Assembly (NCBI GenBank): GCA_020348925.1 | Contig: CP070758.1 | Span: 3,487,688-3,551,687, forward strand | Source: Gemmatimonadota bacterium | GTDB lineage: Bacteria > JBHIER01 > G020348925 | Direction: 5' to 3' | Length of the DNA: 64,000 nt | Shown: positions 6,865 to 50,149 of the stretch, piece after piece | How positions within the stretch are numbered: the stretch's first letter is position 1 | Layout: the number at the start of each line of letters is the position of its first letter | Program-made: the position numbers and the translations under genes | The notes under the pieces: generated by a model | The model's input: only the letters and a program-made list of their open reading frames with translations | Told to the model about the DNA's origin: nothing | Database searches by the model: none

Positions 6865-7668
6865 TTATCCCACCATCCTCGCCACGATTTCCTTCAATAT
6901 CTTAGCACAAGCCATGGCCGTGATGCCTGCTGGATCCCGGTCGGGATTGAATTCGACAATGTCCGCGCCGACAACAGCCGGCGCGTTGACATTCTGAATG
7001 AGTCTGATCGCTTGCCGTGTCGTCAATCCTCCCGGTTCGTGATGTGAGACGCCCGGGGCAAAGGCCGGATCGAGGACATCCACGTCAAAAGAGATATATA
7101 ATGGCTCGCTAAATTCGAAGCTGAGATCGTCATGCCAGTCCTTCATCTCATTCACTTCAACACCAAATTTTTGTGCCCGCTCGCGTTGATGACCATTCAC
7201 TGCTCTTATACCCACTTGAACCAGCCGCTCGACGAGTCCTTCCTCCATGATCCTGGCAAAGGGACAAGCATGGGAGTACCGATTCCCATCGAGTTCGTCA
7301 TAAAGATCAGGGTGGGCATCAAATTGGAGAACATGCAACCTGGGATACTTCTCACTGAAAGCCTTGATGATGGGATACGTCACCGCGTGATCACCGCCAA
7401 GTGAGATGGGAATGGACTTCTTATTGAGAAGGTCTGTAATGGTACTCTCGATCCTTTCCATTGGATTTTCAGAACTGTTGAAGGCGACATCACCGGCATC
7501 AACAATGACGGAATCGCCACCGAGATCCAATCCGCTCTCGCTCCATGTGTTGGTCGAATCACAATGGAAGGCATCCCGTATCTGTTGCGGTGCCTGTGCC
7601 GGGCCTCTCAAAAAAGAGGATTGCTTGTCGTCGGGAAGGCCAATGATGGCTATTTTTCTCTGTTCCAT
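6865..7668 (-). CDS. speB: Agmatinase (ureohydrolase family)
   Basis: GGDHAVT, DAHPD, SFDVDVLDP..PGG and VEFNP motifs. Confidence 0.85.
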   Translation of the reverse strand: MEQRKIAIIGLPDDKQSSFLRGPAQAPQQIRDAFHCDSTNTWSESGLDLGGDSVIVDAGDVAFNSSENPMERIESTITDLLNKKSIPISLGGDHAVTYPIIKAFSEKYPRLHVLQFDAHPDLYDELDGNRYSHACPFARIMEEGLVERLVQVGIRAVNGHQRERAQKFGVEVNEMKDWHDDLSFEFSEPLYISFDVDVLDPAFAPGVSHHEPGGLTTRQAIRLIQNVNAPAVVGADIVEFNPDRDPAGITAMACAKILKEIVARMVG

Positions 7669-20497: not shown

Positions 20498-21847
20498 CTA
20501 TTTCATGAGCACCATCCGTCTGGTGTCAGTGTCATTGTCTGTTTCGATTCGATAGAAATAGACACCGGCAGGCAATTGGGTCGCATCCCAGGAAATACTG
20601 TAATAGCCGGCCTCCAGCGCATCATCCACAAGATCACCAACAATTTGCCCCAGCATGTTGTACACCCTCAGCCTCACCTGACCCTCCTCCGGCAAACCAA
20701 ACTCGATGGTGGTCTCAGGATTGAAGGGATTGGGGTAGTTCTGGGACAGGACAAATTCCTCAGGCACCCCGGCTCCTGCCTTGGCCACCAACCTTTCACG
20801 CGAAGGCCGCCTCACCTCCAGCGTCACGTCGTCCGTCTTCGTCGCGCTCCCATCATCACCCACAATAGTCAATAGATAGTCCCCTACACCCACACTGCGC
20901 GTCACCTGGACCACCAACATCACCGTCTCTGATCCCCGGGCCGGCACCGTCACCACAGCACCAGGATCGAAGTAGTACCGCCTCGTCCCAGGCGGCAAGC
21001 CCGTCACACTCAAGCTCACCGAACTGGTGTAGCAATCGACGGAGCTGACCGTCACATCGTAGGTGGCCGTCCCCAGAAACCCTCCAAACCACTCCACCCT
21101 GGCCACAGCCGGGACTGCACTCACGTCGAAATCGGACGAGCCTCCGAAGTCCGGATCGTTCTGATCAACAAGCCCGTCGCAGTCGTTGTCCTGACCGTCA
21201 CACACTTCAGCGTTACCGGGGTAGTTATTGGGGTTGGCATCGTCACAATCACACACGGTTCCGGCCCCGTCGCCGTCACCATTGGCCTGATCCGGATTGA
21301 ACGTGCCCGGGCAGTTGTCTGTGGCATCATCCACGCCATCCCCGTCAGTATCCGTGAAAGTGGTGACGACATTGTATGCCGGGGAGGTATTCTTGAAGTG
21401 GATCCAGCCGATATTCTCCCCCCAGGCATAGCCGTCAAAGCTGCCGGTGAGAGGATCGATGGTTACTCCACCATATGTGGGATTGAAGTTGATCCAGCCT
21501 ACGTTGGTGCCCCAGGCGTAACCGGACAGGTTGCCTGAGACATCCCTGTTGACACCGTAATTCGTCGCTGAGGTGTTGTCGTAGGAGTGACCACCGTTGC
21601 TCTCATGGGTGCCCAGTCTGATCCAGCCGATGTTCTCGGCCCAGGCGTAACCCTCCAGGTGGTCGGCGTAGACCGTCACGCCGCCGTTGACTGGCCGGAA
21701 ATTGAGCCAGCCCACGTTGGTCCCCCAGGCCCACTTGTCCACCGGGTCGATGTTGCCGGTCTGTGCCTGGAGTACGCCACTTATACTCAGCAGGAGCAGA
21801 GCAGTCAATACGGAATATTTCATGCCCGCTATCATTTTCCTACTCAT
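20498..21847 (-). CDS. Secreted protein: AWxxNxGW repeat domain, TSP3 repeat, putative metal-binding (MopE-like) motif, T9SS-type tail
   Basis: Signal peptide from MSRKM (SD GAGGAGG), four (W/Y)AWxxN(V/I)GW(L/I) repeats, DGDGVDDATDNCP, CDD..YPG.AEVCDGQDNDCDG, QNYPNPFNP. Confidence 0.85.
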   Translation of the reverse strand: MSRKMIAGMKYSVLTALLLLSISGVLQAQTGNIDPVDKWAWGTNVGWLNFRPVNGGVTVYADHLEGYAWAENIGWIRLGTHESNGGHSYDNTSATNYGVNRDVSGNLSGYAWGTNVGWINFNPTYGGVTIDPLTGSFDGYAWGENIGWIHFKNTSPAYNVVTTFTDTDGDGVDDATDNCPGTFNPDQANGDGDGAGTVCDCDDANPNNYPGNAEVCDGQDNDCDGLVDQNDPDFGGSSDFDVSAVPAVARVEWFGGFLGTATYDVTVSSVDCYTSSVSLSVTGLPPGTRRYYFDPGAVVTVPARGSETVMLVVQVTRSVGVGDYLLTIVGDDGSATKTDDVTLEVRRPSRERLVAKAGAGVPEEFVLSQNYPNPFNPETTIEFGLPEEGQVRLRVYNMLGQIVGDLVDDALEAGYYSISWDATQLPAGVYFYRIETDNDTDTRRMVLMK

Positions 21848-21861
21848 AATGTTCCCTCCTC

Positions 21862-22302
21862 TCATCTCAGAGAAAAATGAAAAATCAAACATCGAAAAGC
21901 AAAATGACAGATGAAAATGCAAAATGACCTCTTTCCTTTCAGGGTCAATATGTTCGTTGCGAATATCTTGCTTATTTCATCCTGCTCCTTCAAAAACCAA
22001 TCCACTTCTTTTGCCCCTGCGCGTTTGCTATCCCGGAGAAGAGCAAGCCAGAGTTTACTCTCGTTGGCAGATTTCAATGACGTGTTGAGATAGTTTGTGA
22101 AATCCTTTTTACTGCTTCCCGACTGGCCCCCAATGTAATTCCCAGGAATAATTGCACCACTGCGCAACAGTTGATCTCCAAGTCTTCTGGAAACGTTGTC
22201 CTTTGGCAAGCCATCCAGGAATTCAATGAGCTTTAAAACAAACCTGTACAGCCTCTCCTTGAAATCCTTTTTGAATTTTGCCTTGTCATTTTGCATTTTC
22301 AT
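21862..22302 (-). CDS. Four-helix-bundle protein (TIGR02436 / IVS-encoded-like, Avd structural relative), possibly degenerate
   Basis: FKERLYRF..LP..LGDQLLRSG..NY..S.KDF..SLKSANE..WL.LL. The natural stop seems lost (TGA>TCA relative to the copy at 28427), adding about 21 aa. Confidence 0.8.
   Translation of the reverse strand: MKMQNDKAKFKKDFKERLYRFVLKLIEFLDGLPKDNVSRRLGDQLLRSGAIIPGNYIGGQSGSSKKDFTNYLNTSLKSANESKLWLALLRDSKRAGAKEVDWFLKEQDEISKIFATNILTLKGKRSFCIFICHFAFRCLIFHFSLR
21880..21941. repeat. 62-bp direct repeat, left copy (3' flank of the four-helix-bundle element)
   Basis: 57/62 identical to 28382-28443 by manual alignment. Confidence 0.9.
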
Positions 22303-22324: not shown

Positions 22325-23560
22325 CTACTGTCCTCCGCGCACCGGCCACACGGAGAGAAGGTTGCCCTTATTGTAGACAAACTCACGTAAAAATGGATCA
22401 CAGTCCAGGTTCACGCCCCAGGCGAATTCCGGCAAAGACCAGTAGGTAGTACTCGACCAGTAGATGCCCGGATACACGCCGGTAAAGGCGCGCGGAGTAC
22501 CTGAACAGACCGGCTCTGTTCCTTCCGCTAATGCATATAACTCAGTTTTCGTGGGCAAACGCCAATCGCCAACAACTGAACCATCACTTAGACCTGCATC
22601 CAAAGAATCAGGACACAAAACGCCCACACACCTCTGAGCATCATCATGATTAGTGCAGTCCTCCCACGGCTTTTCTCCACCCCAGTCAGCCTTTTTTAGC
22701 CATACCAAGCATGTCGTCAAATCAGTCACAGTGCCATCCCCATTATCACACCAGCGGGTTCCATTCATGGTGCCTTCGCATGTGCAACCGCCATGAAGAT
22801 TGCCCGATACGTTGAAGATGTTCTTTCCGTTCTTAATGTTGTCGGCAATAAGATCGGCATCGTTGGCCGTAGCTGTTTTCCCGGAATAGAATCCATTCGG
22901 GATGGAGAATGTTCTACTCCCTTCAGGTCCTGAGACGTTGCTGCCTTTCGCCATTGAACCCGTCAGTTCACTACCGTCAACCCAAGCCTTCTTGCCACTG
23001 AGAATATCGCCCGCAGTCGCATCACCGGAGCTGGTATTGACCACATTCGGGTCGCCATCGATGCCGAAGATATTCACTCCGCTCTTGATATTGCCAGCCG
23101 CCAAATCTCCATCCTGGGCTGTAGCCGTCTTTCCCGAATAGATCCCGTCCGGGATTGGAAAAGCCAGCGATCCCTCCGGCCCCAGCACATCGCTGCCTGC
23201 CGCGGCCGTACCTGTTTTCGGCCCCCATTCCCCTGAGGTCAATCCCCAGAAGGTTTTGCCGGACAGGACTTCAGACGCCGTCGCGCCATTGCTATTGTCC
23301 ATAGCTGGGGCTTTACCCATGATCTCGTTCAGGGTGTGCATGGTCGATGTCACCGGCCCGGCGGTGGGTTCGGTAAAGGTGCTCTGCGAACCCGCCGTGC
23401 CGTCGTTCAGGCGGTTGTAGATGTCCTCAAGAGTATAAGAAGATGTAGCACCGGGCGGATTGGTGGGGTCCGTATCCCCGGCATACTCCGACAACGCCAA
23501 AACCCATACGGAAAAAAGAATGAACACTATGGCAGCAAGGACTATGTTTCTCCTACGCAT
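22325..23560 (-). CDS. DUF1566 (Lcl C-terminal, CLec-fold) secreted protein, DGR-target-like (array gene 5)
   Basis: Signal peptide, DNGDGTVTD..LVW, DWRLPT..EL, YWSST..AW.V..NK..VWPVRGGQ. Confidence 0.9.
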   Translation of the reverse strand: MRRRNIVLAAIVFILFSVWVLALSEYAGDTDPTNPPGATSSYTLEDIYNRLNDGTAGSQSTFTEPTAGPVTSTMHTLNEIMGKAPAMDNSNGATASEVLSGKTFWGLTSGEWGPKTGTAAAGSDVLGPEGSLAFPIPDGIYSGKTATAQDGDLAAGNIKSGVNIFGIDGDPNVVNTSSGDATAGDILSGKKAWVDGSELTGSMAKGSNVSGPEGSRTFSIPNGFYSGKTATANDADLIADNIKNGKNIFNVSGNLHGGCTCEGTMNGTRWCDNGDGTVTDLTTCLVWLKKADWGGEKPWEDCTNHDDAQRCVGVLCPDSLDAGLSDGSVVGDWRLPTKTELYALAEGTEPVCSGTPRAFTGVYPGIYWSSTTYWSLPEFAWGVNLDCDPFLREFVYNKGNLLSVWPVRGGQ

Positions 23561-23669
23561 GATCCAACCTCCTTTCCAAATGCGTGGTGAATGGTGAATT
23601 ATGAATCATACAACCTCCTTATGTTATAGATGATTTGGTTGATGTGTTTTCCTTTCATCTCTTATCTAC

Positions 23670-23830
23670 ATCCCCCTAACCCTCATCAAAGGGGGATTTT
23701 TTGTGTGGCCCCCCTTCGAAGGGTAAATTCCAATCTCCCCTTGAGGTTTGCACCCTCCCATTCCCCACTGAGGGGGGGACGAAGGTTGGTAGTCCCCCCT
23801 TGAGGGGGGATTAAGGGGGGTGTTACCCCT
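23670..23830. repeat. Cluster of CCCCCTT(N)AAGGGGG REP-like palindromes
   Basis: Several CCCCC..GGGGG hairpins. Same family at about 26119-26165 and 28727-28927. Confidence 0.75.
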
Positions 23831-23942
23831 ACTCCCTTTCAAAGACCATACATTCATATTCATACATCCATAACCATATTCTCAGAAAAACGGCAAGATC
23901 GAATGTCTTGCGGTATATGGGCAGATGCTCGTATCGGGGCAT
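23829..23942 (-). pseudogene. Truncated DGR accessory-variability-determinant (avd)-like 5' stub
   Basis: ATG 26 nt after the DUF1566 stop reads MPRYEHLPIYRKTFDLAVF(L), continuing ENMV after a 1-nt frameshift. This matches the MAxYEHLPIYKKAxDLxxxxE start recalled for bAvd-like proteins. Not in the ORF track. Confidence 0.7.
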
Positions 23943-23968
23943 ATTTCTCATTAATCAAAATAACCAAA

Positions 23969-24802
23969 TCACTGTCCGGCACGCACAGGCCACACACAGT
24001 AGTTGGCGTAGCCCTTATTGCCGTGGACCACGTCGCCACTAACCGTGTCCACGCCATAGGCGTAGTATGGAAAGGTGTAGAATGAAGTACTAGACGACCA
24101 GTAGCCGGACTGCACATTATCGAACGGACCTGGTCTGCTGGATAGAATATACTCATTTCCATTGGTTATTCCGTCTAATTCATCCACAGTCGGCAGCCGC
24201 CAGTCACCCCACACAGAACCATCTGTGAGAGTAGTACCATCATCTCTTATTTCTGTTAGAGGTCTCATTATTGCGAGATCCCACTCCATCTTGCCACCTA
24301 AATAATTGGCATCTTTCAGCCATACCAAACCCGTGGTCATATCCAGTACCGTTCCATCACCTTGGTCACACCAACGAGTGCCGAAGAAATGAACACCATC
24401 GGAATACATTGTTCCATTGCAGGCTGACCCACCCGCAGATAACGCGCCGGTTTGCAGTCCCCATTCTCCCGCATTCACATTCAGCCCCCAGAATTTCTTA
24501 CCTGCCAAAACTTCGGTAGTTTTGGCACCATAGAGGTTGTTCCTTACCGGGGCAGCATACCAGATGTCGTTCAGGGTGTGCATGGTCGATGTCACCGGCC
24601 CGGTGGTGGGTTCGGTAAAGGTGCTCTGCGCAACCGCCGTGCCATACTTCAGCCGAAGGAAGATCATCTCCAGAGTGGAGGAATATGTAGCGCCGGGCGG
24701 ATTGGTGGGATCCGTGTTCCCGGTATACTCCGACAACGCCAAAACCCATACGAAAAACAGTACGAACGCTACGGCAGAAACAACTATGTATCTCCTACGC
24801 AT
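23969..24802 (-). CDS. DUF1566 secreted protein, DGR-target-like (array gene 4)
   Basis: Shared leader VWVLALSEY..DPT.PPG, DQGDGTVLD..GLVW, DWRLPT..EL, YWSS..VWPVRAGQ. Confidence 0.9.
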   Translation of the reverse strand: MRRRYIVVSAVAFVLFFVWVLALSEYTGNTDPTNPPGATYSSTLEMIFLRLKYGTAVAQSTFTEPTTGPVTSTMHTLNDIWYAAPVRNNLYGAKTTEVLAGKKFWGLNVNAGEWGLQTGALSAGGSACNGTMYSDGVHFFGTRWCDQGDGTVLDMTTGLVWLKDANYLGGKMEWDLAIMRPLTEIRDDGTTLTDGSVWGDWRLPTVDELDGITNGNEYILSSRPGPFDNVQSGYWSSSTSFYTFPYYAYGVDTVSGDVVHGNKGYANYCVWPVRAGQ

Positions 24803-24870
24803 GATCCAGCCTCCTTTTCATTCTAACCCTCCCTGTGAATGGTGAAAAGATACTTGTGTGATATAATTTA

Positions 24871-24918
24871 TATCATTTGAATCCCCGATCGGAGTCGAGG
24901 ACAAGCTTTAGATTTAAG
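24871..24918. repeat. 48-bp post-stop repeat with hairpin
   Basis: 45/48 identical to 27394-27441. Contains the minus-strand stem-loop TCCTCGA-CTCCGA-TCGGGGA. Confidence 0.85.
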
Positions 24919-24921
24919 CGT

Positions 24922-26001
24922 CTATTGTCCACCGCGTACCGGCCACACAGAACAATTGTCATTTTGTTGTATTAAGTCAAAGACTCCCACATCGCCATCA
25001 CTCAGGCTTACGTAATAGAAACCATGTTCACCAGGGTCCAAAGTACTCGTGCAGAAAGGAAGCCCAGTGAATACACTAAACGGATGCCCTGCAGGAAGAG
25101 CAGGTCCACTCTGTGTAAGATCAATCAAACTATGCAGCTCATTCACATTAGGCAGACGCCAGTCGTCGTAACCAGCAAATGAAAAATCGTTGCAGAAGTT
25201 AAGGGCGTCAATAACGCGATGGATTGCATGAGGAGCTCCTTTTGTCCACATCAGGCGGGTCCAGTTGTCGGTGACCGTATCATCACCATGGTCTGTGAAT
25301 CGAGCTCCCGTAAATCCGTAAACAGTATACGCACCACGAACACCAGTGCTCGGCGACCACTCTGGTAATACACCGAGTTGATACTCCCCATCCTGTCCGG
25401 TGCCTTCGCAGGGTATAACCAGACCCTCATCGTTTAAACATTTAGTTACCCCTGTTTTCGGGACTCTTGCTGCTCCGCTGGCTTCAATGAGGGTACCTGA
25501 GACTCCGAAGATGTCAATTCCGCTTCTGATATTTCCCTCCAGCAGGTCTCCATCTTGGGCCGTGGCCGTTTTCCCGGAATAGACACCATCAGGGATTGGA
25601 AAAGCTATCGATCCCTCCGCTCCCAGCACATCGCTTCCTGCCGCGGCTGTTCCTGTTTGTGTCCCCCATTCTCCCGAGGTCAGCCCCCAGAAAGTTTTGC
25701 CACTGAGCACATCCGCTGCGGTAGCGCCATTGGCTTCATCAACAGCAGGGGCTTCCCCCAAGATGTCATTCAGAGTGTGCATCGTCGCTGTGCCCAGTCC
25801 GTCGGTAGGTTCCGTAAATGGTCTCGGTCCATCCTCCGCGCCAGTAACCAAGCGATTATAGATGTCCTCCAGAGAGTAAGAGGATGTAGACCCCGGTGGA
25901 TAGGTGGGATCAGAATCACCAGCATACTCCGACAACGCCAAAACCCATACGGAAAACACGACAAGCACTACGGCAGCAAAGACTATGTGTCTCCTACGCA
26001 T
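24922..26001 (-). CDS. DUF1566 secreted protein (array gene 3, variable region drifted)
   Basis: MRRRHIV start after GGAGG SD, PKTG..GQDG, FTDHGDDTVTD..LMW, GYDDWRLPNVNEL, VWPVRGGQ. Confidence 0.9.
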   Translation of the reverse strand: MRRRHIVFAAVVLVVFSVWVLALSEYAGDSDPTYPPGSTSSYSLEDIYNRLVTGAEDGPRPFTEPTDGLGTATMHTLNDILGEAPAVDEANGATAADVLSGKTFWGLTSGEWGTQTGTAAAGSDVLGAEGSIAFPIPDGVYSGKTATAQDGDLLEGNIRSGIDIFGVSGTLIEASGAARVPKTGVTKCLNDEGLVIPCEGTGQDGEYQLGVLPEWSPSTGVRGAYTVYGFTGARFTDHGDDTVTDNWTRLMWTKGAPHAIHRVIDALNFCNDFSFAGYDDWRLPNVNELHSLIDLTQSGPALPAGHPFSVFTGLPFCTSTLDPGEHGFYYVSLSDGDVGVFDLIQQNDNCSVWPVRGGQ

Positions 26002-26112
26002 GATCCAGCCTCCATTCATATAGGGAATTGTAAATAAAGAACTGTCCAGTATCAATCATGTGACCTCCTTCTGGTATAGATAATTTTGTTGATGCATTTT
26101 CTGTCATCTCTT

Positions 26113-26211
26113 TTACATTCCCCTAACCCCCTTCAAAGGGGGAATTTTTGTGTGGCACCCCTTCAAATCATACGCCTCACGAAAAATGGGCAGGTGTTCA
26201 TACCGGGCCAT
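26113..26211 (-). pseudogene. Truncated avd-like 5' stub fused to a REP palindrome
   Basis: Reads MARYEHLPIFREAYDL, then runs into the TTTGAAGGGG REP spacer. Lies downstream of DUF1566 gene 26325..27161 and a GC hairpin. Confidence 0.72.
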
Positions 26212-26267
26212 TCTGTCTACTCATCCTTATCACTTTATTGATTCAATGCTCCTCGAAATCCTCGCGG

Positions 26268-26290
26268 GCAAGTGGGGACACCCCCCTTGC
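26268..26290 (-). promoter_or_regulatory. GC-rich hairpin 34 nt after the variable-region-like 3' end (candidate DGR target-recognition cruciform)
   Basis: GCAAGGGGGG-TGT-CCCCACTTGC, 9 of 10 bp paired, between the target stop and the avd stub. Confidence 0.55.
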
Positions 26291-26324
26291 ATCCCCCCAA
26301 CAAAGTATCAAAGTACCAAAGACT

Positions 26325-27161
26325 CTACTGTTCTCCACGCACCGGCCACACAAATGGGACGCTGTAGCTCTTATTGAAGTGGTGCACGGAGCCATCGGAC
26401 ATGACCACGATCCAGGCGTAGTTCGGAAGGTCCGCTAAGGTAGTACTCGACCAGTAGCTGCCCAACTCCACGCCGGAAAAGGCGCGCGGAGTATCTGAAC
26501 GGACTTGCTCTGTTCCGTGCGTTAAATCATACAACTCTGTTTTCGTAGGCAACCGCCAATCGCCTTCTGTAGAACCATCGCTCAAGTCTGCACCAGCACT
26601 TCCAGCCTTCAAAATGCCTGCTCGCGTATGAGCATCATCATAACCAATGCCGTCCACCCACATTTTTTGCCCACCCCAGTCAGCCTTTTTCAACCATACC
26701 AGGCATGTGGTCAAATCTGTCACTGTCCCATCTCCATTATCACACCACCGGGTTCCATTCATGGTGCCGGTGCATGTGCAACCGCCATGAAGACTACCGG
26801 TTTCCTCCCCCCAGTCACTGCCATCACTACCGTCGGTGCGTAAACTCCAATACTTCTTGCCATGTGCCACTTCCGCTTTAGTGGCTCCATAGGTGTTGTC
26901 CGCAACTGGCGCCTTGTCCATGATGTCATTCAGAGTGTGCATCGTCGCTGTGCCCGGTCCGTCGGTAGGTTCCGTAAATGGTCTCGGTCCATCCTCCGCG
27001 CCAGTAACCAAGCGATTATAGATGTCCTCCAGAGAGTAGGAGGATGTAGACTCCGGTGGATAGGTGGGATCAGAATCTCCAGCATACTCCGACAACGCCA
27101 AAACCCATACTACTAACAGGACAAACATTACGGCGGCAAGGACTCTGTGTCTGCTTCGCAT
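26325..27161 (-). CDS. DUF1566 secreted protein, DGR-target-like (array gene 2)
   Basis: MRSRHRV start after AAGGAGG, CDNGDGTVTDLTTCLVW, DWRLPTKTEL, YWSSTT..AW.V.M..G.V...NK..VWPVRGEQ. Confidence 0.9.
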   Translation of the reverse strand: MRSRHRVLAAVMFVLLVVWVLALSEYAGDSDPTYPPESTSSYSLEDIYNRLVTGAEDGPRPFTEPTDGPGTATMHTLNDIMDKAPVADNTYGATKAEVAHGKKYWSLRTDGSDGSDWGEETGSLHGGCTCTGTMNGTRWCDNGDGTVTDLTTCLVWLKKADWGGQKMWVDGIGYDDAHTRAGILKAGSAGADLSDGSTEGDWRLPTKTELYDLTHGTEQVRSDTPRAFSGVELGSYWSSTTLADLPNYAWIVVMSDGSVHHFNKSYSVPFVWPVRGEQ

Positions 27162-27442
27162 GATGTAACCTCCTTTCATTTTTCCCTTATCATGAGTCAC
27201 CTAAGCTGAGCGATTTAATAAGCATACTTTGCATAAATGTCATTCTGAACTGAGCAAAGCGAAGTGAAGAATCTTACTCGAATGGTGGGAGATTCTTCGC
27301 CCGATAAATCGGACTCAGAATGACAGTTACGTCAGACTTTGCGCCAGGAATCGCTCAATTCGAATTTCATTTAGATTTCAATTCCATTCTGTTTATCATT
27401 TGGATCCCCGATCGGAGTCGAGGACAAGCTTGGGATTTAAGG

Positions 27443-28348
27443 TTACTCTCCTCCGCGTACACGCCACAACAAGTAGAATTCGGTTTTAACGTAGAAGTCC
27501 ACGGAGCCATCTTCCAAGTCCACGGCCCAGGCGTAGACCGAAGTCGGAACGTCCTCGAACGTAGTACTCGACCAGTAGAGGCTCGACTGCACGCCGGTAA
27601 ACGGATGACCGGCTGGCAGATAAGGTGAGGAGAGGCCTGGATCAAAAAGGCTCCGCAACTCATTTATATTCGGCATCCGCCAGTCGCTGTAACCAGCAAA
27701 TGAAGATTTGCTTTCGGAAATGGCCATTTCCCAAGGAGTAGGCGGCCAGTAGGCACTTTTTGTCCACATCAAGCCGGTCAGATTGTCCGTCACCGTCCCA
27801 TCCCCATTGTCCGTAAACTGCGCCGTTCCATCATAACACTTGAACGACGCCCGATTATAACCCCCGAAGGAAGAACCAGGCCATGAAAGCACCACGACGG
27901 GCAGACCCCCATTCCGGTAGTACCCGTCATCTCCTGTGACATACGAGACAACCTGCCCGGTTTTCGCTACATATTGAGGCGCTGTGCCCGTTTGCAATCC
28001 CCAACTACTGCCACCACTGCCGTCGGTGCGTAAGCTCCAATACTTCTTGCCACATGCCACATCCGCTTTGGTGGCTCCATCTGTGTTATCCGCAACCGGG
28101 GCCTTGTCCATGATCTGATTCAGAGTGTACATGGTACTCCCCGGCCCACTGGTGGGTTCCGTAAAGGTACTTTGTGTACCGTCCGCTCCGGTGTCCAGCC
28201 GGTTGTAGATGTCCTCAAGAGTATAAGAAGATGTAGCACCGGGCGGATTGGTGGGGTCCGTGTTCCCGGCATACTCCGACAACGCCAAAACCCATACGAA
28301 AAACAGAACGAACATTACGACAGCAAGGACTATGTTTCTCCTACGCAT
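27443..28348 (-). CDS. DUF1566 secreted protein, DGR-target-like (array gene 1)
   Basis: KTGQ..GDDG, FTDNGDGTVTDNLTGLMW, GYSDWRMPNINEL, YWSSTT..AWAV..LWRVRGGE. Confidence 0.9.
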   Translation of the reverse strand: MRRRNIVLAVVMFVLFFVWVLALSEYAGNTDPTNPPGATSSYTLEDIYNRLDTGADGTQSTFTEPTSGPGSTMYTLNQIMDKAPVADNTDGATKADVACGKKYWSLRTDGSGGSSWGLQTGTAPQYVAKTGQVVSYVTGDDGYYRNGGLPVVVLSWPGSSFGGYNRASFKCYDGTAQFTDNGDGTVTDNLTGLMWTKSAYWPPTPWEMAISESKSSFAGYSDWRMPNINELRSLFDPGLSSPYLPAGHPFTGVQSSLYWSSTTFEDVPTSVYAWAVDLEDGSVDFYVKTEFYLLWRVRGGE

Positions 28349-28381
28349 GATCCAACCTCCTTCCTATTTAACAGAAATTGA

Positions 28382-28478
28382 AAAAATCAAACATCAAAAA
28401 GCAAAATGACAGATCAAAATGCAAAATCATTTCTTTCCTTTCAAATATTTGGGGTCACATCTTTGATCTTTGATCTTC
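28382..28478 (-). mobile_element. Internally deleted copy of the four-helix-bundle element (flanks plus last codons LKGKK*)
   Basis: Minus strand: AAGATCAAAGATCAAAG 5' flank, TTG AAA GGA AAG AAA TGA, then the 3' flank matching 21880-21941. Confidence 0.7.
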
Positions 28479-29103
28479 TCTCTGTTTTGTCAATCTTATC
28501 CCTAACACCCCCCTGTTATTCCGAAAAAAGCCAGGCCGCATCGAAGATCTGTCAATGGTAACAAACCAGATTTCTCCACTCATCCCGCCTTGGCGGGATT
28601 CCGTCGAAAGGACACATCATTTGTCCCACTCGTATCCCCGAATCCTTGGCCCCTTGAATCCTCTATATTAAGGGTCACCGCCTTGATCTTTGATCCTTTC
28701 TCTGTCATGTCACTCTTTTTCTTAACACCCCCCTGTAGTCCCCCCATGATATGGGGGACGATGAGAAGTCCACCTTTCGTATAGAAACCACCTCTAAAAG
28801 TTCCCCGTTTGTAAAGGAGCCACACCTCAAGTCCCCCTTTCGTAAAGGGGGATTTAGGGGGATTTTATAAAGGAAATGTTTTTTCATTGAAACAATCCCC
28901 TCTAACTCCCCTTTGAAAAAGGGGGGAACATTTTCCGCATCAACACAAGATATTCCCTCATCATGGTGGAATTGTTGTTATGAAAATAACCCCTGAGACC
29001 CTCAGATAACGTCCGTGATACAGAAAGCTATATACTTTTTCCGTTCTCCGTTTTCCCTTAGATTCCCCCGAATCCTTGAACCCTTGAATCCTTTAATTAC
29101 AAC

Positions 29104-29152
29104 AAAAAAACACCTTCTCCCTCATTCATTCAAACGAGGTACAGAAGGCGTT
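29104..29152 (-). terminator. Intrinsic terminator inside the leader of the DUF1566 array
   Basis: AACGCCTTCT..CCTCGTTT..GAATGAGG.AGAAGGTG hairpin followed by T7. Confidence 0.7.
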
Positions 29153-29316
29153 CTATACTCTGACGGAAAGATGGCTGCCGTAACCACCCTTCCTCCTTTC
29201 ATGAAGTCGTCCCTGTTAACTCAAGTAAACCATGAAGCGGATATAATATTTTAGGTTAAAGGGATCGCGGGTTGAAACTTTGTCCGCATGCATACCCTCT
29301 CTTATATTCAGTTTTG

Positions 29317-29345
29317 ATATTATGCAATTATATGTAAAATGTCAA
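29317..29345 (-). promoter_or_regulatory. Sigma70-type promoter upstream of the DUF1566 array
   Basis: TTGACA-17 bp-TAATAT in AT-rich context. Confidence 0.65.
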
Positions 29346-29744
29346 GCATTTTTTTTTATAATTTTTATGCTTTCCTCCAACAGATACTTTATGATCAATT
29401 TAGCTAATTTGTTGATAAAATATTAAGTTAATTGAACTGCTCTTCTGAGAGTTGAACTCCCACCGATTTGTCGATTTGTTGGGATAGGCATACAACTCAT
29501 GCCCCAGCATGGGATGACAGATACTGTGCCTGTCTTTGCGAGTGAAGCGGAGAAATCCGGGGTTGGCAGCACGGACAGATTACTCGTTACACTCGAAATG
29601 ACAAAGAGGTGTGAATCTTTGGATTCAAATCCGCACAAAAGAAAACCTCCCGGAAGTTCCAACCCCGGGAGGTTATTTGTTAGATCCTTCGACGAAGCTC
29701 AGGACATGCTTTTCGATCCTTCGACAAACTCGGGGCATGCTTTT

Positions 29745-32744
29745 TTACTTCATCAACACCATCCGCTTCGTCTCCGACCAATGGCTCCCAATTGACAACC
29801 GAAAAAAGTACACTCCACTGGGAACGTCATTTCCCTGCCCATCCCGCCCATCCCAGGTGACCGTATAGTATCCGGGCTCCTGAACCTCATCCACCAAAGA
29901 TCGTATCTCCTGTCCCAGGATATTATAAATTTTCAGGTTGGTGTGAACTGGAGATCCACTATCTGCTATCTGATATCTGATATCTGTAACCGGATTAAAC
30001 GGATTCGGATAGTTCTGCTGAAGACTACACTCAACGGGTGTCAGGAACTCCGCCTTTAAAAGAGCCATCAACCTGTTGTAGTGCTCCGGTGTCACGTGAG
30101 GTTGTACCATCTTCAGAACCTCCCAGGTCTCGTCCGTCAGGTCCGTTTTGCAGGCACCAGGCACACACTCCCCGGTTCCCAGGATGACGTTAGCGATACC
30201 GATCAAATCCAGAAGATCGACATCACCATCACCGTTACAATCGGCCGCAACGAGAGCACTCTCCCCCAATGACCAAATTCCCAGGATGTAGTTGACGGTT
30301 GTGACGATATCGAAAAGATCAACGATGCCGTCTCCGGTCACGTCCCCGCGGAGCACATCACACGCATCGCCTGTCCCGTCACCGTCACCGTCCTCCTGAC
30401 CCGGATTAAACACATTCGGACAGTTATCGTCGACATCACACACACCATCCCCGTCACCATCCGAGCACAGATCACCGACATAACGGAGAACCTGAACGCC
30501 GACGCCCATCCGTTCGGAGACAGGAACTCCTGAAGATCCATTGAAACTGTATACTTGCCCAGGACCTTCAGGAAACCACGAGCAGTAGTACGTCGGCTCC
30601 ACACCCAAACCGAGAAGGAGCTGTCCTCCGTCGGAAGCCATTGACAGAACGCTTTCATGAAGCTCATCGACAGCGGTGCGCCAGATCAGATTTGACCAAG
30701 TTCCGTTGTAGGAAAAGAGCTGCGTTTCGGGCAAGCCAAAACCGCGCCAATCCTTACTGTACCATAACAATCCCTGATACGACTCCATCTGCCAGATCTC
30801 CCTGTTTTCGAGATCGTAATCCAGACTCGTCGACCAATGCAGACCGTCGGACGTCCGGTGCATGCGACCGAGCCAGGCACTGGAATAGAGCTCCGCACCG
30901 TAGGCCTCAAAATCCCAGATACAGCTTCCGCCCAACTCGGCCACCTCCACGAAACCCGTCCCGTCAAAGCGTCCGATATTGTCCACACCATGATCGCCCA
31001 GATAGAGCAAACCGTCCTTTTCCCACAGATACGAGCTGCGCACACCGGCCCAGTCCGGATAGTCCACAACCAGTATCCAATTGTGAGGACCCATGTATTT
31101 GTAGAGCCGCGCCCCACCCCCTGTGGTGCCGGCGTAGAGATTCCCCTGATAGACGTCCAGCGTATTCACCATAAAATCCATATCATCGCCCACCAGCGTC
31201 CACACACAATCGCCGTCGTATCGCCACACCTGACCGATGGAATAGAAACACGGACTCCCGGACATCGTCCCGGCGTACAACGTGCCCTCGTAATCAACGA
31301 GGGCGAGCACGGAATACCCGAGCACAGGCGAAAGAGCATTCCAAGTACTGTCAGCATTATACTTGTAGACAACCCCGGGATATGTCCCTCCGGCGTAGAA
31401 GCCGCTCAGGGATGTGTCGTCCACACAGGGAGGAGGAGCCATGACTGATAGCTCGAAATCAATTCCGAAGGTCGTGTCCGATTCCTGAACCGATACCAGA
31501 GTGGCCTCCCCCCAGTGCGATGCCTCGAAATAGAATTGCCCCTCGTATATTGGGTCCCCGGACTCGCAGTCCCACCCCGGAGCTCCGACATAATAGCTCC
31601 CCGGGGGTAAAACACTTAAAACGTACTTTCCCGACGAATTCGTGCATGTTTCTGAATTTCGTTCTCCACTCACACTGAAAACGGTAACAAACGTGTTCGC
31701 AACAGGCGTCACTCCATCGCTCTCATAGACATAGCCAGAAAGAGACCCGCCTGTGCCCAATCTGAAGTCAATCCCGAAGGTCGTATCCGGAGCTTCCACC
31801 GAAACCGGCGTGGCATTCTCCCAATACGGAGTGTCGTCGTAATATTGGCTCAAATAGAGTCTCTCCCAGGTCAGACAATCCCAACCCGTGGCCTCCACAT
31901 AGTAGATCCCCGAAGGCAAGGCATGGGCAGTATATCTGCCGGTAGAGTCGGTGCAGGCGTATGAATAATAGAAGAAATCTTCATCCAGGACATCAATTTC
32001 CGTGTTCGCAACGGGCGTCACACCATCGCGCTCGTAGACATGACCGGATATGCCCCCCATGAGAACAGGAACATCGGTTATGCTTACACAGTAATAATGC
32101 CCGGGTCCGCCCTCCGAGCCGTGGGAGAAATCCCGAACAAGAAGGTAAAACGTTCCCGAATGAGGAAGTCTAAAATTCACGATCCGAGAATCCCAGCCGT
32201 CCGCGTCGTCGTTCTCCGCAAGGACTGTCGTGGTATCCGAATCGTACAGATAGATATATGAGTCCAAGGACGATCCGAGAACGGAAGCATCAATATCAAT
32301 GGTCACTTCATCTCCCTCGGAGCCCGAAAAACCGAAAATGTCGGTATCCCCTTGCGGATCTATGGTCAAATCACACAGGGAATCTCCGTAGGCGATCGGG
32401 GTCGCCTGATGAAAGAAGTCGTTGGGCTCGTAGTTGTCGATAGTGACCCCCGTCACCATGGTACTTTCGGAGCGGTGAACCTTCTTCGAGAAAACAGCCT
32501 CTCTCATTCTCATTTGTTGTTTCTTTCGAACGGCACTACCTATTCCAGGACGTTCGTTCTTTATATCATTCGCTCTTCCATTGAACGTGCTGATATCCTC
32601 TTTTTGCTGTGTGAGTATGAATTCGATCTTCGCCGGTGCGCCGCAGTTTTTATGCATCCCCTTCTGGGAGGAGGCAGAGGCACAAAGGAGTATGAGCACC
32701 ACGCCGATTCCAGACACAACATATTCGGGCTTCCGAAAAAACAT
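29745..32744 (-). CDS. Secreted multidomain protein: PPC domain, two carboxypeptidase-regulatory-like repeats, beta-propeller, TSP3, dockerin, T9SS-type tail
   Basis: YEPND..DTDIF..LDSYIYLYD..ENDD, (I/L)SGxVYExDG twice, DGDGDGVCDVDDNCP, GDVTGDG..D / ADCNGDGDVD..D, QNYPNPFNP. Confidence 0.85.
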   Translation of the reverse strand: MFFRKPEYVVSGIGVVLILLCASASSQKGMHKNCGAPAKIEFILTQQKEDISTFNGRANDIKNERPGIGSAVRKKQQMRMREAVFSKKVHRSESTMVTGVTIDNYEPNDFFHQATPIAYGDSLCDLTIDPQGDTDIFGFSGSEGDEVTIDIDASVLGSSLDSYIYLYDSDTTTVLAENDDADGWDSRIVNFRLPHSGTFYLLVRDFSHGSEGGPGHYYCVSITDVPVLMGGISGHVYERDGVTPVANTEIDVLDEDFFYYSYACTDSTGRYTAHALPSGIYYVEATGWDCLTWERLYLSQYYDDTPYWENATPVSVEAPDTTFGIDFRLGTGGSLSGYVYESDGVTPVANTFVTVFSVSGERNSETCTNSSGKYVLSVLPPGSYYVGAPGWDCESGDPIYEGQFYFEASHWGEATLVSVQESDTTFGIDFELSVMAPPPCVDDTSLSGFYAGGTYPGVVYKYNADSTWNALSPVLGYSVLALVDYEGTLYAGTMSGSPCFYSIGQVWRYDGDCVWTLVGDDMDFMVNTLDVYQGNLYAGTTGGGARLYKYMGPHNWILVVDYPDWAGVRSSYLWEKDGLLYLGDHGVDNIGRFDGTGFVEVAELGGSCIWDFEAYGAELYSSAWLGRMHRTSDGLHWSTSLDYDLENREIWQMESYQGLLWYSKDWRGFGLPETQLFSYNGTWSNLIWRTAVDELHESVLSMASDGGQLLLGLGVEPTYYCSWFPEGPGQVYSFNGSSGVPVSERMGVGVQVLRYVGDLCSDGDGDGVCDVDDNCPNVFNPGQEDGDGDGTGDACDVLRGDVTGDGIVDLFDIVTTVNYILGIWSLGESALVAADCNGDGDVDLLDLIGIANVILGTGECVPGACKTDLTDETWEVLKMVQPHVTPEHYNRLMALLKAEFLTPVECSLQQNYPNPFNPVTDIRYQIADSGSPVHTNLKIYNILGQEIRSLVDEVQEPGYYTVTWDGRDGQGNDVPSGVYFFRLSIGSHWSETKRMVLMK

Positions 32745-50049: not shown

Positions 50050-50149
50050 NNNNNNNNNNNNNNNNNNNNNNNNNNNNNNNNNNNNNNNNNNNNNNNNNNN
50101 NNNNNNNNNNNNNNNNNNNNNNNNNNNNNNNNNNNNNNNNNNNNNNNNN
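50050..50149. other. Scaffold gap (100 N)
   Basis: Run of N. The true length is unknown. Confidence 0.99.

Follow-up and report, generated by a model that had tools for sequence, protein, structure and literature searches.

In the canonical diversity-generating retroelement (DGR) of the BPP-1 type (Wu et al. 2018, PMC5758913, architecture B1), the target gene is followed by avd, a template repeat (TR) and a reverse transcriptase (RT) gene. DGRs are usually catalogued through the RT, and targets without a cassette therefore go unseen. Here, we examined a window of 64,000 nucleotides (nt) from the genome of a Gemmatimonadota bacterium (G000:C1:3487688-3551687), in which five paralogous genes, g1 to g5, lie in tandem, head to tail on the minus strand, all with a conserved signal/anchor N-terminus and a C-terminal Lcl_C (DUF1566) domain. 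Behind g2 and g4 stand two short gene starts, stubs A and B, that resemble the N-terminus of Avd. We read the array as a set of orphaned DGR targets that carries the scars of cassette loss, and we put the probability of this reading as a whole at roughly 60%. A decayed or orphaned target array is a known sort of system, and this one is a clear and datable example of DGR loss, in which scars of avd reveal former targets without an RT.

The locus shares with the canonical order a target with a C-terminal lectin-like variable region (VR), an avd start a few tens of bases past the target stop, a GC hairpin 3' of the g2 VR and a concentration of VR variation at template adenines. It differs in that avd is reduced to 16 and about 25 codons and that neither the locus nor the assembled genome contains a TR or an RT. 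A hairpin or cruciform downstream of the VR is required for BPP-1 homing according to Guo et al. (2011, PMC3240598); hairpins of phage DGRs have a 4-nt GRNA loop, whereas the loop at g2 has 3 nt. MSL is a described DGR accessory gene, found in architecture D and in a Legionella DGR (PMC5758913). Two relatives of the locus with the same type of flank, L057 and L038, likewise carry a MutS_I gene (msl) past the hairpin, followed by avd in L057, whereas the window has about 50 nt and no msl between the hairpin and stub A.

DGRs can also act in trans on non-adjacent or tandem targets, as Wu et al. (PMC5758913) relate for Treponema denticola and for Stenotrophomonas with its eight tandem targets. 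The window resembles these systems in its paralogous tandem targets and in a sign of diversification without a cassette of its own, but no cassette was found in its genome assembly. The main text of PMC5758913 does not use the words "truncated," "pseudogene" or "degenerate" and describes no avd fragments beside such targets, and no description of avd stubs as scars beside DGR targets turned up in the texts that we searched. For cyanobacteria, Vallota-Eastman et al. (2020, PMC7517822) report DGR target paralogues with remnant TR-VR likeness and no nearby RT, and they suggest that fixation of a variant is followed by removal of the components for diversification. In contrast to the degraded DGRs presented there, the window records the loss in datable avd scars of two lineages, and its relatives record it in a graded series of deletions in the same slot. 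Our results do not overturn current DGR biology but extend what is known of remote targets, degraded cassettes and target paralogues.

The two avd stubs

Stub A lies behind g2 (26325..27161, minus strand, like every gene, leader, flank, stub and junction segment of the window given below; Pfam Lcl_C E value, 1.4e-19), whose DGR-type VR takes up about the last 46 codons. The g2 TAG is followed by an A-type flank (26255..26324) with the CTTTGG/CTTTGA repeats TTTGGTAC TTTGATAC TTTG and, some 36 nt past the stop, a GC hairpin, GCAAGGGGGG-TGT-CCCCACTTGC, with a stem of 9 to 10 bp, one mismatch and a predicted energy, folded as DNA, of -10.2 kcal/mol (z, -2.2). The flank aligns with those of the related loci L038, L029 and L057; the hairpin is conserved in L038 and L057, and its stem shows compensating changes, most clearly documented for L057. 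The CTTTGG-type repeat motif recurs behind 21 of 66 gene ends of the family and a G4..C4 hairpin behind 9 of 66. Stub A itself (26164..26211) comprises codons 1 to 16 of avd, MARYEHLPIFREAYDL, from the ATG at 26211; its frame stays open for 32 codons, and the likeness to Avd stops after codon 16 or 17. Avd likeness ends at 26164, and at 26167 begins the leader of g3 (26002..26167), which abuts the stub directly and is homologous to the leader of g5 (26167-25505 against 23720-23064, 76% over 666 nt and 85% over 105 nt).

Stub B lies behind g4 (23969..24802; Lcl_C E value, 9.4e-16), whose VR has the B-type end GCC GGA CAG TGA. The TGA is followed by TTTGGTTATTTTGATT and then by the ATG at 23942, which reads MPRYEHLPIYRKTFDLAVFL, with ENMV resuming after one missing base. 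The intervening B-type AT-rich flank (23943..23968, TTTGGTTATTTTGAT..., with TTTGGT..TTTGAT) is also present in L048 and L058, and a related flank stands in the intact cassette of L109; no hairpin was found between the g4 stop and stub B. Stub B (23860..23942) covers avd codons 1 to about 24 or 25 but lacks 1 nt between 23884 and 23883, and with the frame repaired it ends in a stop at 23862-23860. L048 reads MAQYEHLPIYRKAFDLAVFLENTVRGV (...AVFLENTVRGV) in a single frame, which confirms the loss of 1 nt in stub B, and the intact B-type Avd of L109 goes on ...ENIARNFSRYHKY at the point where the stubs break off. Thus, the two ATGs, the repeats, the hairpin and the frameshift that the preliminary description of this DNA had listed are all present.

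The N-termini of both stubs fit the bAvd-like (PF22296 / NF033474) consensus M-A-x-Y-E-H-L-P-I-Y-K/R-x-A-x-D-L. When a degenerate pattern for the peptide common to both stubs was scanned over viral contigs, 14 loci were found. In two of them, L013 and L022, the motif opens an open reading frame (ORF) for a full bAvd-like protein (PF22296, 50 and 52 bits) between an Lcl_C target and a TR with an RVT_1 RT; the other 12 were chance matches inside other frames and were discarded. Of 203 candidates from a search that started with the L013 Avd, 201 proteins had E values up to 0.001, and a profile was built from the best 120. Among these 120, the motif Y[ED]HLP[IV][YFW] occurs in 103, in 91 of which its Y is residue 4, and the consensus is M-A-R/H-Y-E-H-L-P-I-Y-K-x-A-L/M-D-L-x-I/V-Y-F-E-K/N-I-V-R. 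The profile hidden Markov model (HMM) was then run over all 198,426 stop-to-stop frames of at least 12 amino acids (aa) in the genome. Stub B ranked first (E value, 2.4e-4; profile positions 1 to 20) and stub A fourth (3.1e-3; positions 1 to 17), and ranks 2 and 3 were full-length PF05635 genes elsewhere in the genome. In a tblastn search with the full Avd of L057, stub A was the top match of the whole genome (13 of 16 aa identical; E value, 0.002) and stub B the second (E value, 0.012).

Pfam gave no match for the stub fragments of 20 to 32 aa, for which little can align since the model begins near Avd residue 5 to 9; the full relatives score 46 to 52 bits against the bAvd model (L109, L013 and L022) and 37.6 bits (L057; E value, 3e-9; cutoff, 40). 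With a likeness that ends after 16 to 17 and about 24 to 25 codons, the stubs fall short of a complete four-helix bundle (about 105 to 135 aa) and are gene remnants rather than potentially functional members of the Avd family. That they are what remains of avd from former DGR cassettes we regard as almost certain, and the preliminary description, which had named this N-terminus as that of Avd and proposed a profile comparison, was correct in this respect. A check for full-length relatives with a stub-like N-terminus that are not Avd found none. Chance resemblance or an assembly artefact would find some room in the shortness of the stubs and the missing Pfam match, but we consider its probability negligible. 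The stubs rank as given above among all frames of the genome, they match from profile position 1 and at an ATG, they stand directly behind VR-type gene ends, and an orthologous stub exists in L048. Their junctions are also present in contigs of two sediment-metagenome runs (X1, 23698-24223 with 0 differences and 26089-26786 with 1; X2, 23551-24304 with 5), although these runs may be the source samples, so that the matches are not independent support, and run contigs cannot reveal rare VR variants or an unassembled cassette. One further X2 contig (depth, 5.4; likeness, 85%) connects 26305 with 24921 by 27 letters of CTTTGG-type repeat; it possibly comes from another strain, and nothing was concluded from it.

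The two stubs descend from different cassettes. They are identical at 32 of 48 nt, and the differences are strongly skewed, with a proportion of synonymous differences (pS) of 0.95 and of nonsynonymous differences (pN) of 0.17 (Fisher p, 2e-5). With synonymous sites saturated at a low pN, the stubs are not copies of one dead stub; rather, they represent two avd lineages that diverged under purifying selection, as working genes. Stub A is nearest the avd of L057 (36 of 48 nt; pN, 0.06), against a pN of 0.27 to that of the viral L013, and stub B groups with the avd of L048, L058 and L109. The flanks split in the same way, into a hairpin-bearing A side (L038, L029 and L057) and an AT-rich B side (L048, L058 and L109). 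On this evidence, the suggestion made earlier of at least two different DGR cassettes is upheld. The scars thus separate two lineages of cassettes, and for one of them, as described below, the truncation can be dated before the split from a metagenome relative.

Nothing else of a cassette was found in this genome, a statement that applies to the assembled draft with its 205 N gaps. RVT_1 had no match at E values up to 10, tblastn of three DGR RTs gave a best E value of 0.46, and when the five VRs and two foreign TRs were searched against the genome by blastn, only the five genes matched, and no TR. The Avd profile over all frames found no whole bAvd-type avd. We infer that the array is now orphaned and inactive, a frozen repertoire, unless a cassette sits in unassembled sequence. 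If the array is truly orphaned, hypervariable ligand-binding domains would have turned into a fixed, germline-like set of five paralogues.

Other genomes gave few counterparts. In a set of 61 genomes that includes one relative from the same family, the pattern TAYGARCAYYTNCCNATHTWYMG matched in G000 alone, where it hit both stubs and, by chance, one other site; the same-family relative, G001, which is 87% complete, has RVT_1 matches and no match to g4. A scan of genome contigs with the family alignment gave 11 pattern matches, none of which was confirmed, and the B-type avd pattern found one genome contig (L109) and no viral contig.

Cassette deletion in related loci

A metagenome scan with the family alignment gave 177 pattern matches, 95 of which were confirmed, and the best 80 of the 95 loci were kept; they hold 81 gene ends of the family, 67 of them with at least 400 nt downstream. 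In 26 of the 67, a homologue of wNext begins within 400 nt. In the window, wNext (20498..21922) encodes a type IX secretion system (T9SS)-sorted protein with a Pfam Por_Secre_tail domain and a repeated Y-A-W-G-x-N-x-G-W motif, and its recurrence suggests that it forms a functional pair or operon with the Lcl_C gene. It is also the right border of a slot. Where DGR parts are present, they always lie between the target and wNext, save for an unrelated upstream RT in L049.

The states of this slot form a series. L057 has the full cassette, with the target, hairpin, msl, avd, TR and RT before a wNext-like gene (Pfam Lcl_C, MutS_I, bAvd and RVT_1), and in its VR/TR pair of 149 nt, 22 of 25 mismatches fall at TR adenines. 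L038 (1256-2747) has the target, hairpin, msl, an RT from residue 153 and wNext, with no avd and no TR; the MutS_I E values are 6e-15 in L057 and 7e-15 in L038. In L029 (2411-2965), msl is fused to the C-terminus of the RT and followed by wNext. Starts of msl stand directly before wNext in L049 (residues 1 to 40, 7514-7633, with the unrelated RT 3 kb upstream on the other strand) and in L065 (residues 2 to 63, 7052-7237). L048 has avd codons 1 to 25 and then wNext, and L058 has an avd start on a contig that ends at avd codon 22. The related loci thus display stepwise loss of the cassette from a fixed chromosomal slot, from the full element through internal deletions to stubs of its first accessory gene. 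Intact target-avd-TR-RT loci behind Lcl_C genes, as the preliminary description had expected, were found in L013, L022, L057 and L109. L109 holds an intact B-type cassette (Lcl_C target, bAvd at 46 bits, RVT_1) behind a target whose N-terminus differs from that of the window family, and 21 of its 23 VR/TR differences are at TR adenines; for L013 and L022, the counts are 17 of 17 and 10 of 10.

These states lead us to propose the following course of events. The five Lcl_C genes would be a tandem family of DGR targets, in which g2 and g4 were native targets, each once directly trailed by its own cassette. The type A cassette would have run VR, CTTTGG repeats, GC hairpin, (msl), avd, TR and RT, and the type B cassette VR, AT-rich flank, avd, TR and RT. 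Internal deletions would then have removed avd from codon 17 (A) or about codon 26 (B) onward, through TR and RT, and fused each stub to the leader of the next gene, and g4 probably remained a secondary target, served by a trans-acting cassette. We prefer deletion in place to co-duplication (discussed below) because the series of L057, L038, L029, L049/L065 and L048 amounts to frequent internal cassette deletions in the slot, and since L038 and L029 keep the right-hand part of the RT, only deletion explains those remnants. For the two stubs of the window, this origin is, on balance, the one we favor.

The truncation of stub B is a single old event that predates the split of the window and L048 lineages, since L048 has the same truncation, junction included. 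L048 is colinear with 24712-23793 of the window (78.7% over 936 nt), which covers the g4 end, the stop, stub B and 78 nt beyond. The stubs are identical at 66 of 72 nt and the post-junction segment (23793..23870), which contains G/C hairpins, at 67 of 77 nt. Past 23793, L048 continues into wNext, and in the window come the leader of g5, then g5 itself and a four-helix-bundle gene. Counts over the whole genome (29 C5+..G5+ and 14 G5+..C5+ overlapping matches, with three distinct sites in array spacers) led us to reject the idea that the G/C hairpins behind the stubs belong to a genome-wide repeat family.

With a pS of 0.10 and a pN of 0.09 against L048, stub B has drifted neutrally since its truncation. 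The stubs might instead be retained for a role in cis (recognition of the target in retrohoming, or as a 3' untranslated region or terminator) or as a small ORF. The 92% identity of stub B to its L048 counterpart, against 88% in mid-gene, the need of BPP-1 homing for sequence downstream of the VR (PMC3240598) and the survival of 5' pieces of the first cassette gene in five separate loci would all fit such a role. However, 66 of 72 is within sampling error of 88%, pN about equals pS, stub B is frameshifted, and stub A is shorter, being cut at codon 16. Moreover, BPP-1 requires only about 24 bp past the VR according to that paper, and no stub-specific stable structure was found, and we think that retention for such a function is improbable.

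The preliminary description had gone further and proposed that DGR outputs were captured into a host array by grafting of 3' modules, together with the start of avd, onto a common secreted scaffold. In such a capture, the modules would come from foreign (e.g., phage) cassettes, and the host scaffold would not itself have been a DGR target. The presence of two cassette lineages would fit this, as would the fact that the closest full-length relatives of the avd motif were first met on viral contigs and that the nearest relative of a paralogue is not the same for its 5' half as for its 3' half. However, the same N-terminal scaffold is native to the DGR targets of L057, L038, L029, L048 and L058, the viral targets lack it, and the flank elements occur in chromosomal-looking loci of the family as well. 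The viral Avds are also the more distant ones, as the pN values of stub A to L013 and L057 indicate. A deletion series in the slot explains the stubs without capture, and we therefore consider both the grafting and the capture to be very unlikely.

Variable regions and exchange of 3' modules

The C-terminal VRs of the Lcl_C genes bear the footprint of adenine mutagenesis. Between g2 and its orthologue L024, mismatches at codon positions 1, 2 and 3 number 16, 18 and 7 in the VR, against 15, 13 and 41 in mid-gene, and with the TR of L057 as a proxy, 26 of 42 adenine positions differ, against 22 of 112 elsewhere (p, 1e-6). Between g4 and L048, which are 88% identical in mid-gene and 64.5% in the VR, 25 of 47 adenine positions of the L109 TR differ, against 13 of 84 elsewhere and a mid-gene divergence of about 12%. 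Between L048 and L058, by the same proxy, 24 of 46 adenine positions differ and only 1 of 82 others, although the gene bodies are saturated (73 of 114 third positions differ); these two VRs look like two outputs of one template.

The excess at adenine positions between g4 and L048 postdates their common truncation, so that it calls for either a cassette acting in trans or an exchange of VRs by recombination. We take it to suggest that the g4 VR was still being diversified in trans after stub B had been truncated. This hint of rewriting at template adenines in a stub-bearing target bears on how DGRs gain or keep secondary targets.

Parts of genes have also moved within the array. The 5' end of g2 is nearest g3 (86%), and its 3' half is nearest g5 (79%; 26793-26406 against 22799-22412, 78.7%). 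The 5' portion of g4, about 258 nt (24563-24820), is 86% identical to g5, and the first 213 nt compared (24500-24712) are only 66% identical to the apparent orthologue L048. These contrasts between paralogues point to gene conversion, by which the 5' ends of the array look homogenized, and 3' modules have been exchanged between paralogues. In the metagenome relatives, L048 and L058 are 85 to 90% identical from the start of the VR through the flank to avd codons 1 to 22 (44 of 48 nt at the avd start) and about 45 to 60% just upstream, and this drop indicates that the unit of VR, flank and avd start moved between gene bodies at least once. The mosaic structure of g2 and the case of L048 and L058 support the earlier proposal of copied 3' modules in this one respect.

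This mobility opens a different route to the stubs, in which a paralogue that never had a local cassette received at its 3' end a copy of the VR, the flank and the first 16 to 25 codons of avd of a master target-avd-TR-RT locus. The paralogue would become an extra DGR target, and the length of the stub would be no more than the reach of the copied segment; all of this would take place within the family, without capture by a host. Such co-duplication would account for L048 and L058 being alike from the VR start through the avd start and dissimilar upstream, for L109, where a target with another N-terminus precedes a related flank, avd and TR, for the mosaicism of modules inside the window, and for a continued A-type change of the g4 VR after truncation, which it would lead one to expect. 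On the other hand, the RT remnants of L038 and L029 and the msl starts of L049 and L065 in the same slot make deletion demonstrably frequent there, L057 holds a full cassette in the very slot where L048 and the window hold a stub, and no genome was seen with both a master cassette and stub-bearing copies. We therefore regard co-duplication as a serious but rather unlikely alternative to deletion in place. An extension of it, in which the VR, the flank and the first 25 or so codons of avd form a portable module for target conversion, the avd start is needed in cis and the stub genes are working secondary targets of one trans-acting cassette that is unassembled or recently lost, is in our judgment doubtful. 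If true, copying of this portable module onto the 3' ends of paralogues would be how this DGR family recruits targets.

Several findings weigh against an orphaned array whose stubs arose by deletion in place. DGR parts are near the gene in only 6 of the 80 related loci, and most members of the family have no visible DGR linkage. None of the 80 loci shares stub A, and the sequence of L024 ends 4 nt past the gene stop. No intact B-type cassette, from which the right endpoint of that deletion could be read, was recovered beside a gene of the window family. The adenine tests use TRs of other organisms (L109 and L057), and exchange of VRs by recombination could mimic diversification after truncation. 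The separate history of VR, flank and avd start is as compatible with co-duplication of a 3' module as with deletion. Finally, in a draft of 206 pieces, where repeated VR and TR sequences often stay unassembled, a live cassette may exist.

Setting of the array

The genome is a 5.04-Mb draft, 96.3% complete, with 205 joins of 100 N between its pieces, and the window itself crosses one such join (50050-50149). The piece that carries the array spans about -43800 to 50049 in window coordinates. The three paralogues without an avd stub are g1 (27443..28348; Lcl_C E value, 8.8e-26), the first of the array, with no stub 3' of it, and the long forms g3 (24922..26001; 3.8e-20) and g5 (22325..23560; 2.9e-14), the latter being the one whose 3' half is nearest g2. 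The 3' flanks of g1 and g3 (27394-27468 and 24871-24947) are 87% identical over 77 nt and unlike both DGR-type flanks; they share a weak hairpin, GTCCTCGACTCCGATCGGGGA, and are perhaps a terminator. A second Lcl_C locus lies some 83 kb before the window (G000:C1:3404170-3404909), where the family model matches two adjacent frames (466 and 216 aa), possibly a frameshifted gene; the genome-wide profile gave no avd match there, and no flank motif is nearby.

In the spacer between g1 and g2, a short element (27238-27325) stands out in four sediment runs by its very high contig depth (565 in X1, with about 10 to 20 nearby) and has loose contig ends on both sides. It contains GTCATTCTGA...TCAGAATGAC and looks like a widespread repeat resembling a miniature inverted-repeat transposable element (MITE). 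Upstream of g1, a stretch of 1.4 kb (28349-29744) has no long ORF and shows short peptide-like motifs repeated in several frames; the GC content is lower here (0.447 for 28001-30000), and a C5..G5 hairpin stands at 28740.

The four-helix-bundle gene (21862-22296) belongs to TIGR02436/PF05635, the 23S rRNA intervening sequence (IVS) protein family, whose members are distant relatives of Avd (65.4 bits, cutoff 24, and 54.1 bits, cutoff 33.8, respectively). It starts 28 nt past the g5 stop, which is an avd-like position, but unlike a DGR Avd it has no PF22296 match and is flanked by 18-bp inverted repeats, ATGAAAATGCAAAATGAC. It was considered as a third, intact avd and rejected on these two grounds and on its absence from all 80 related loci, and it has the look of a cassette of its own. 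Immediately upstream of g1, 114 nt (28330-28443) repeat the tail of this gene at 79% identity, and hence direct repeats bracket the whole array. At the ends of both repeats, run contigs accumulate, at a depth of about 100 to 130 against about 10 nearby.

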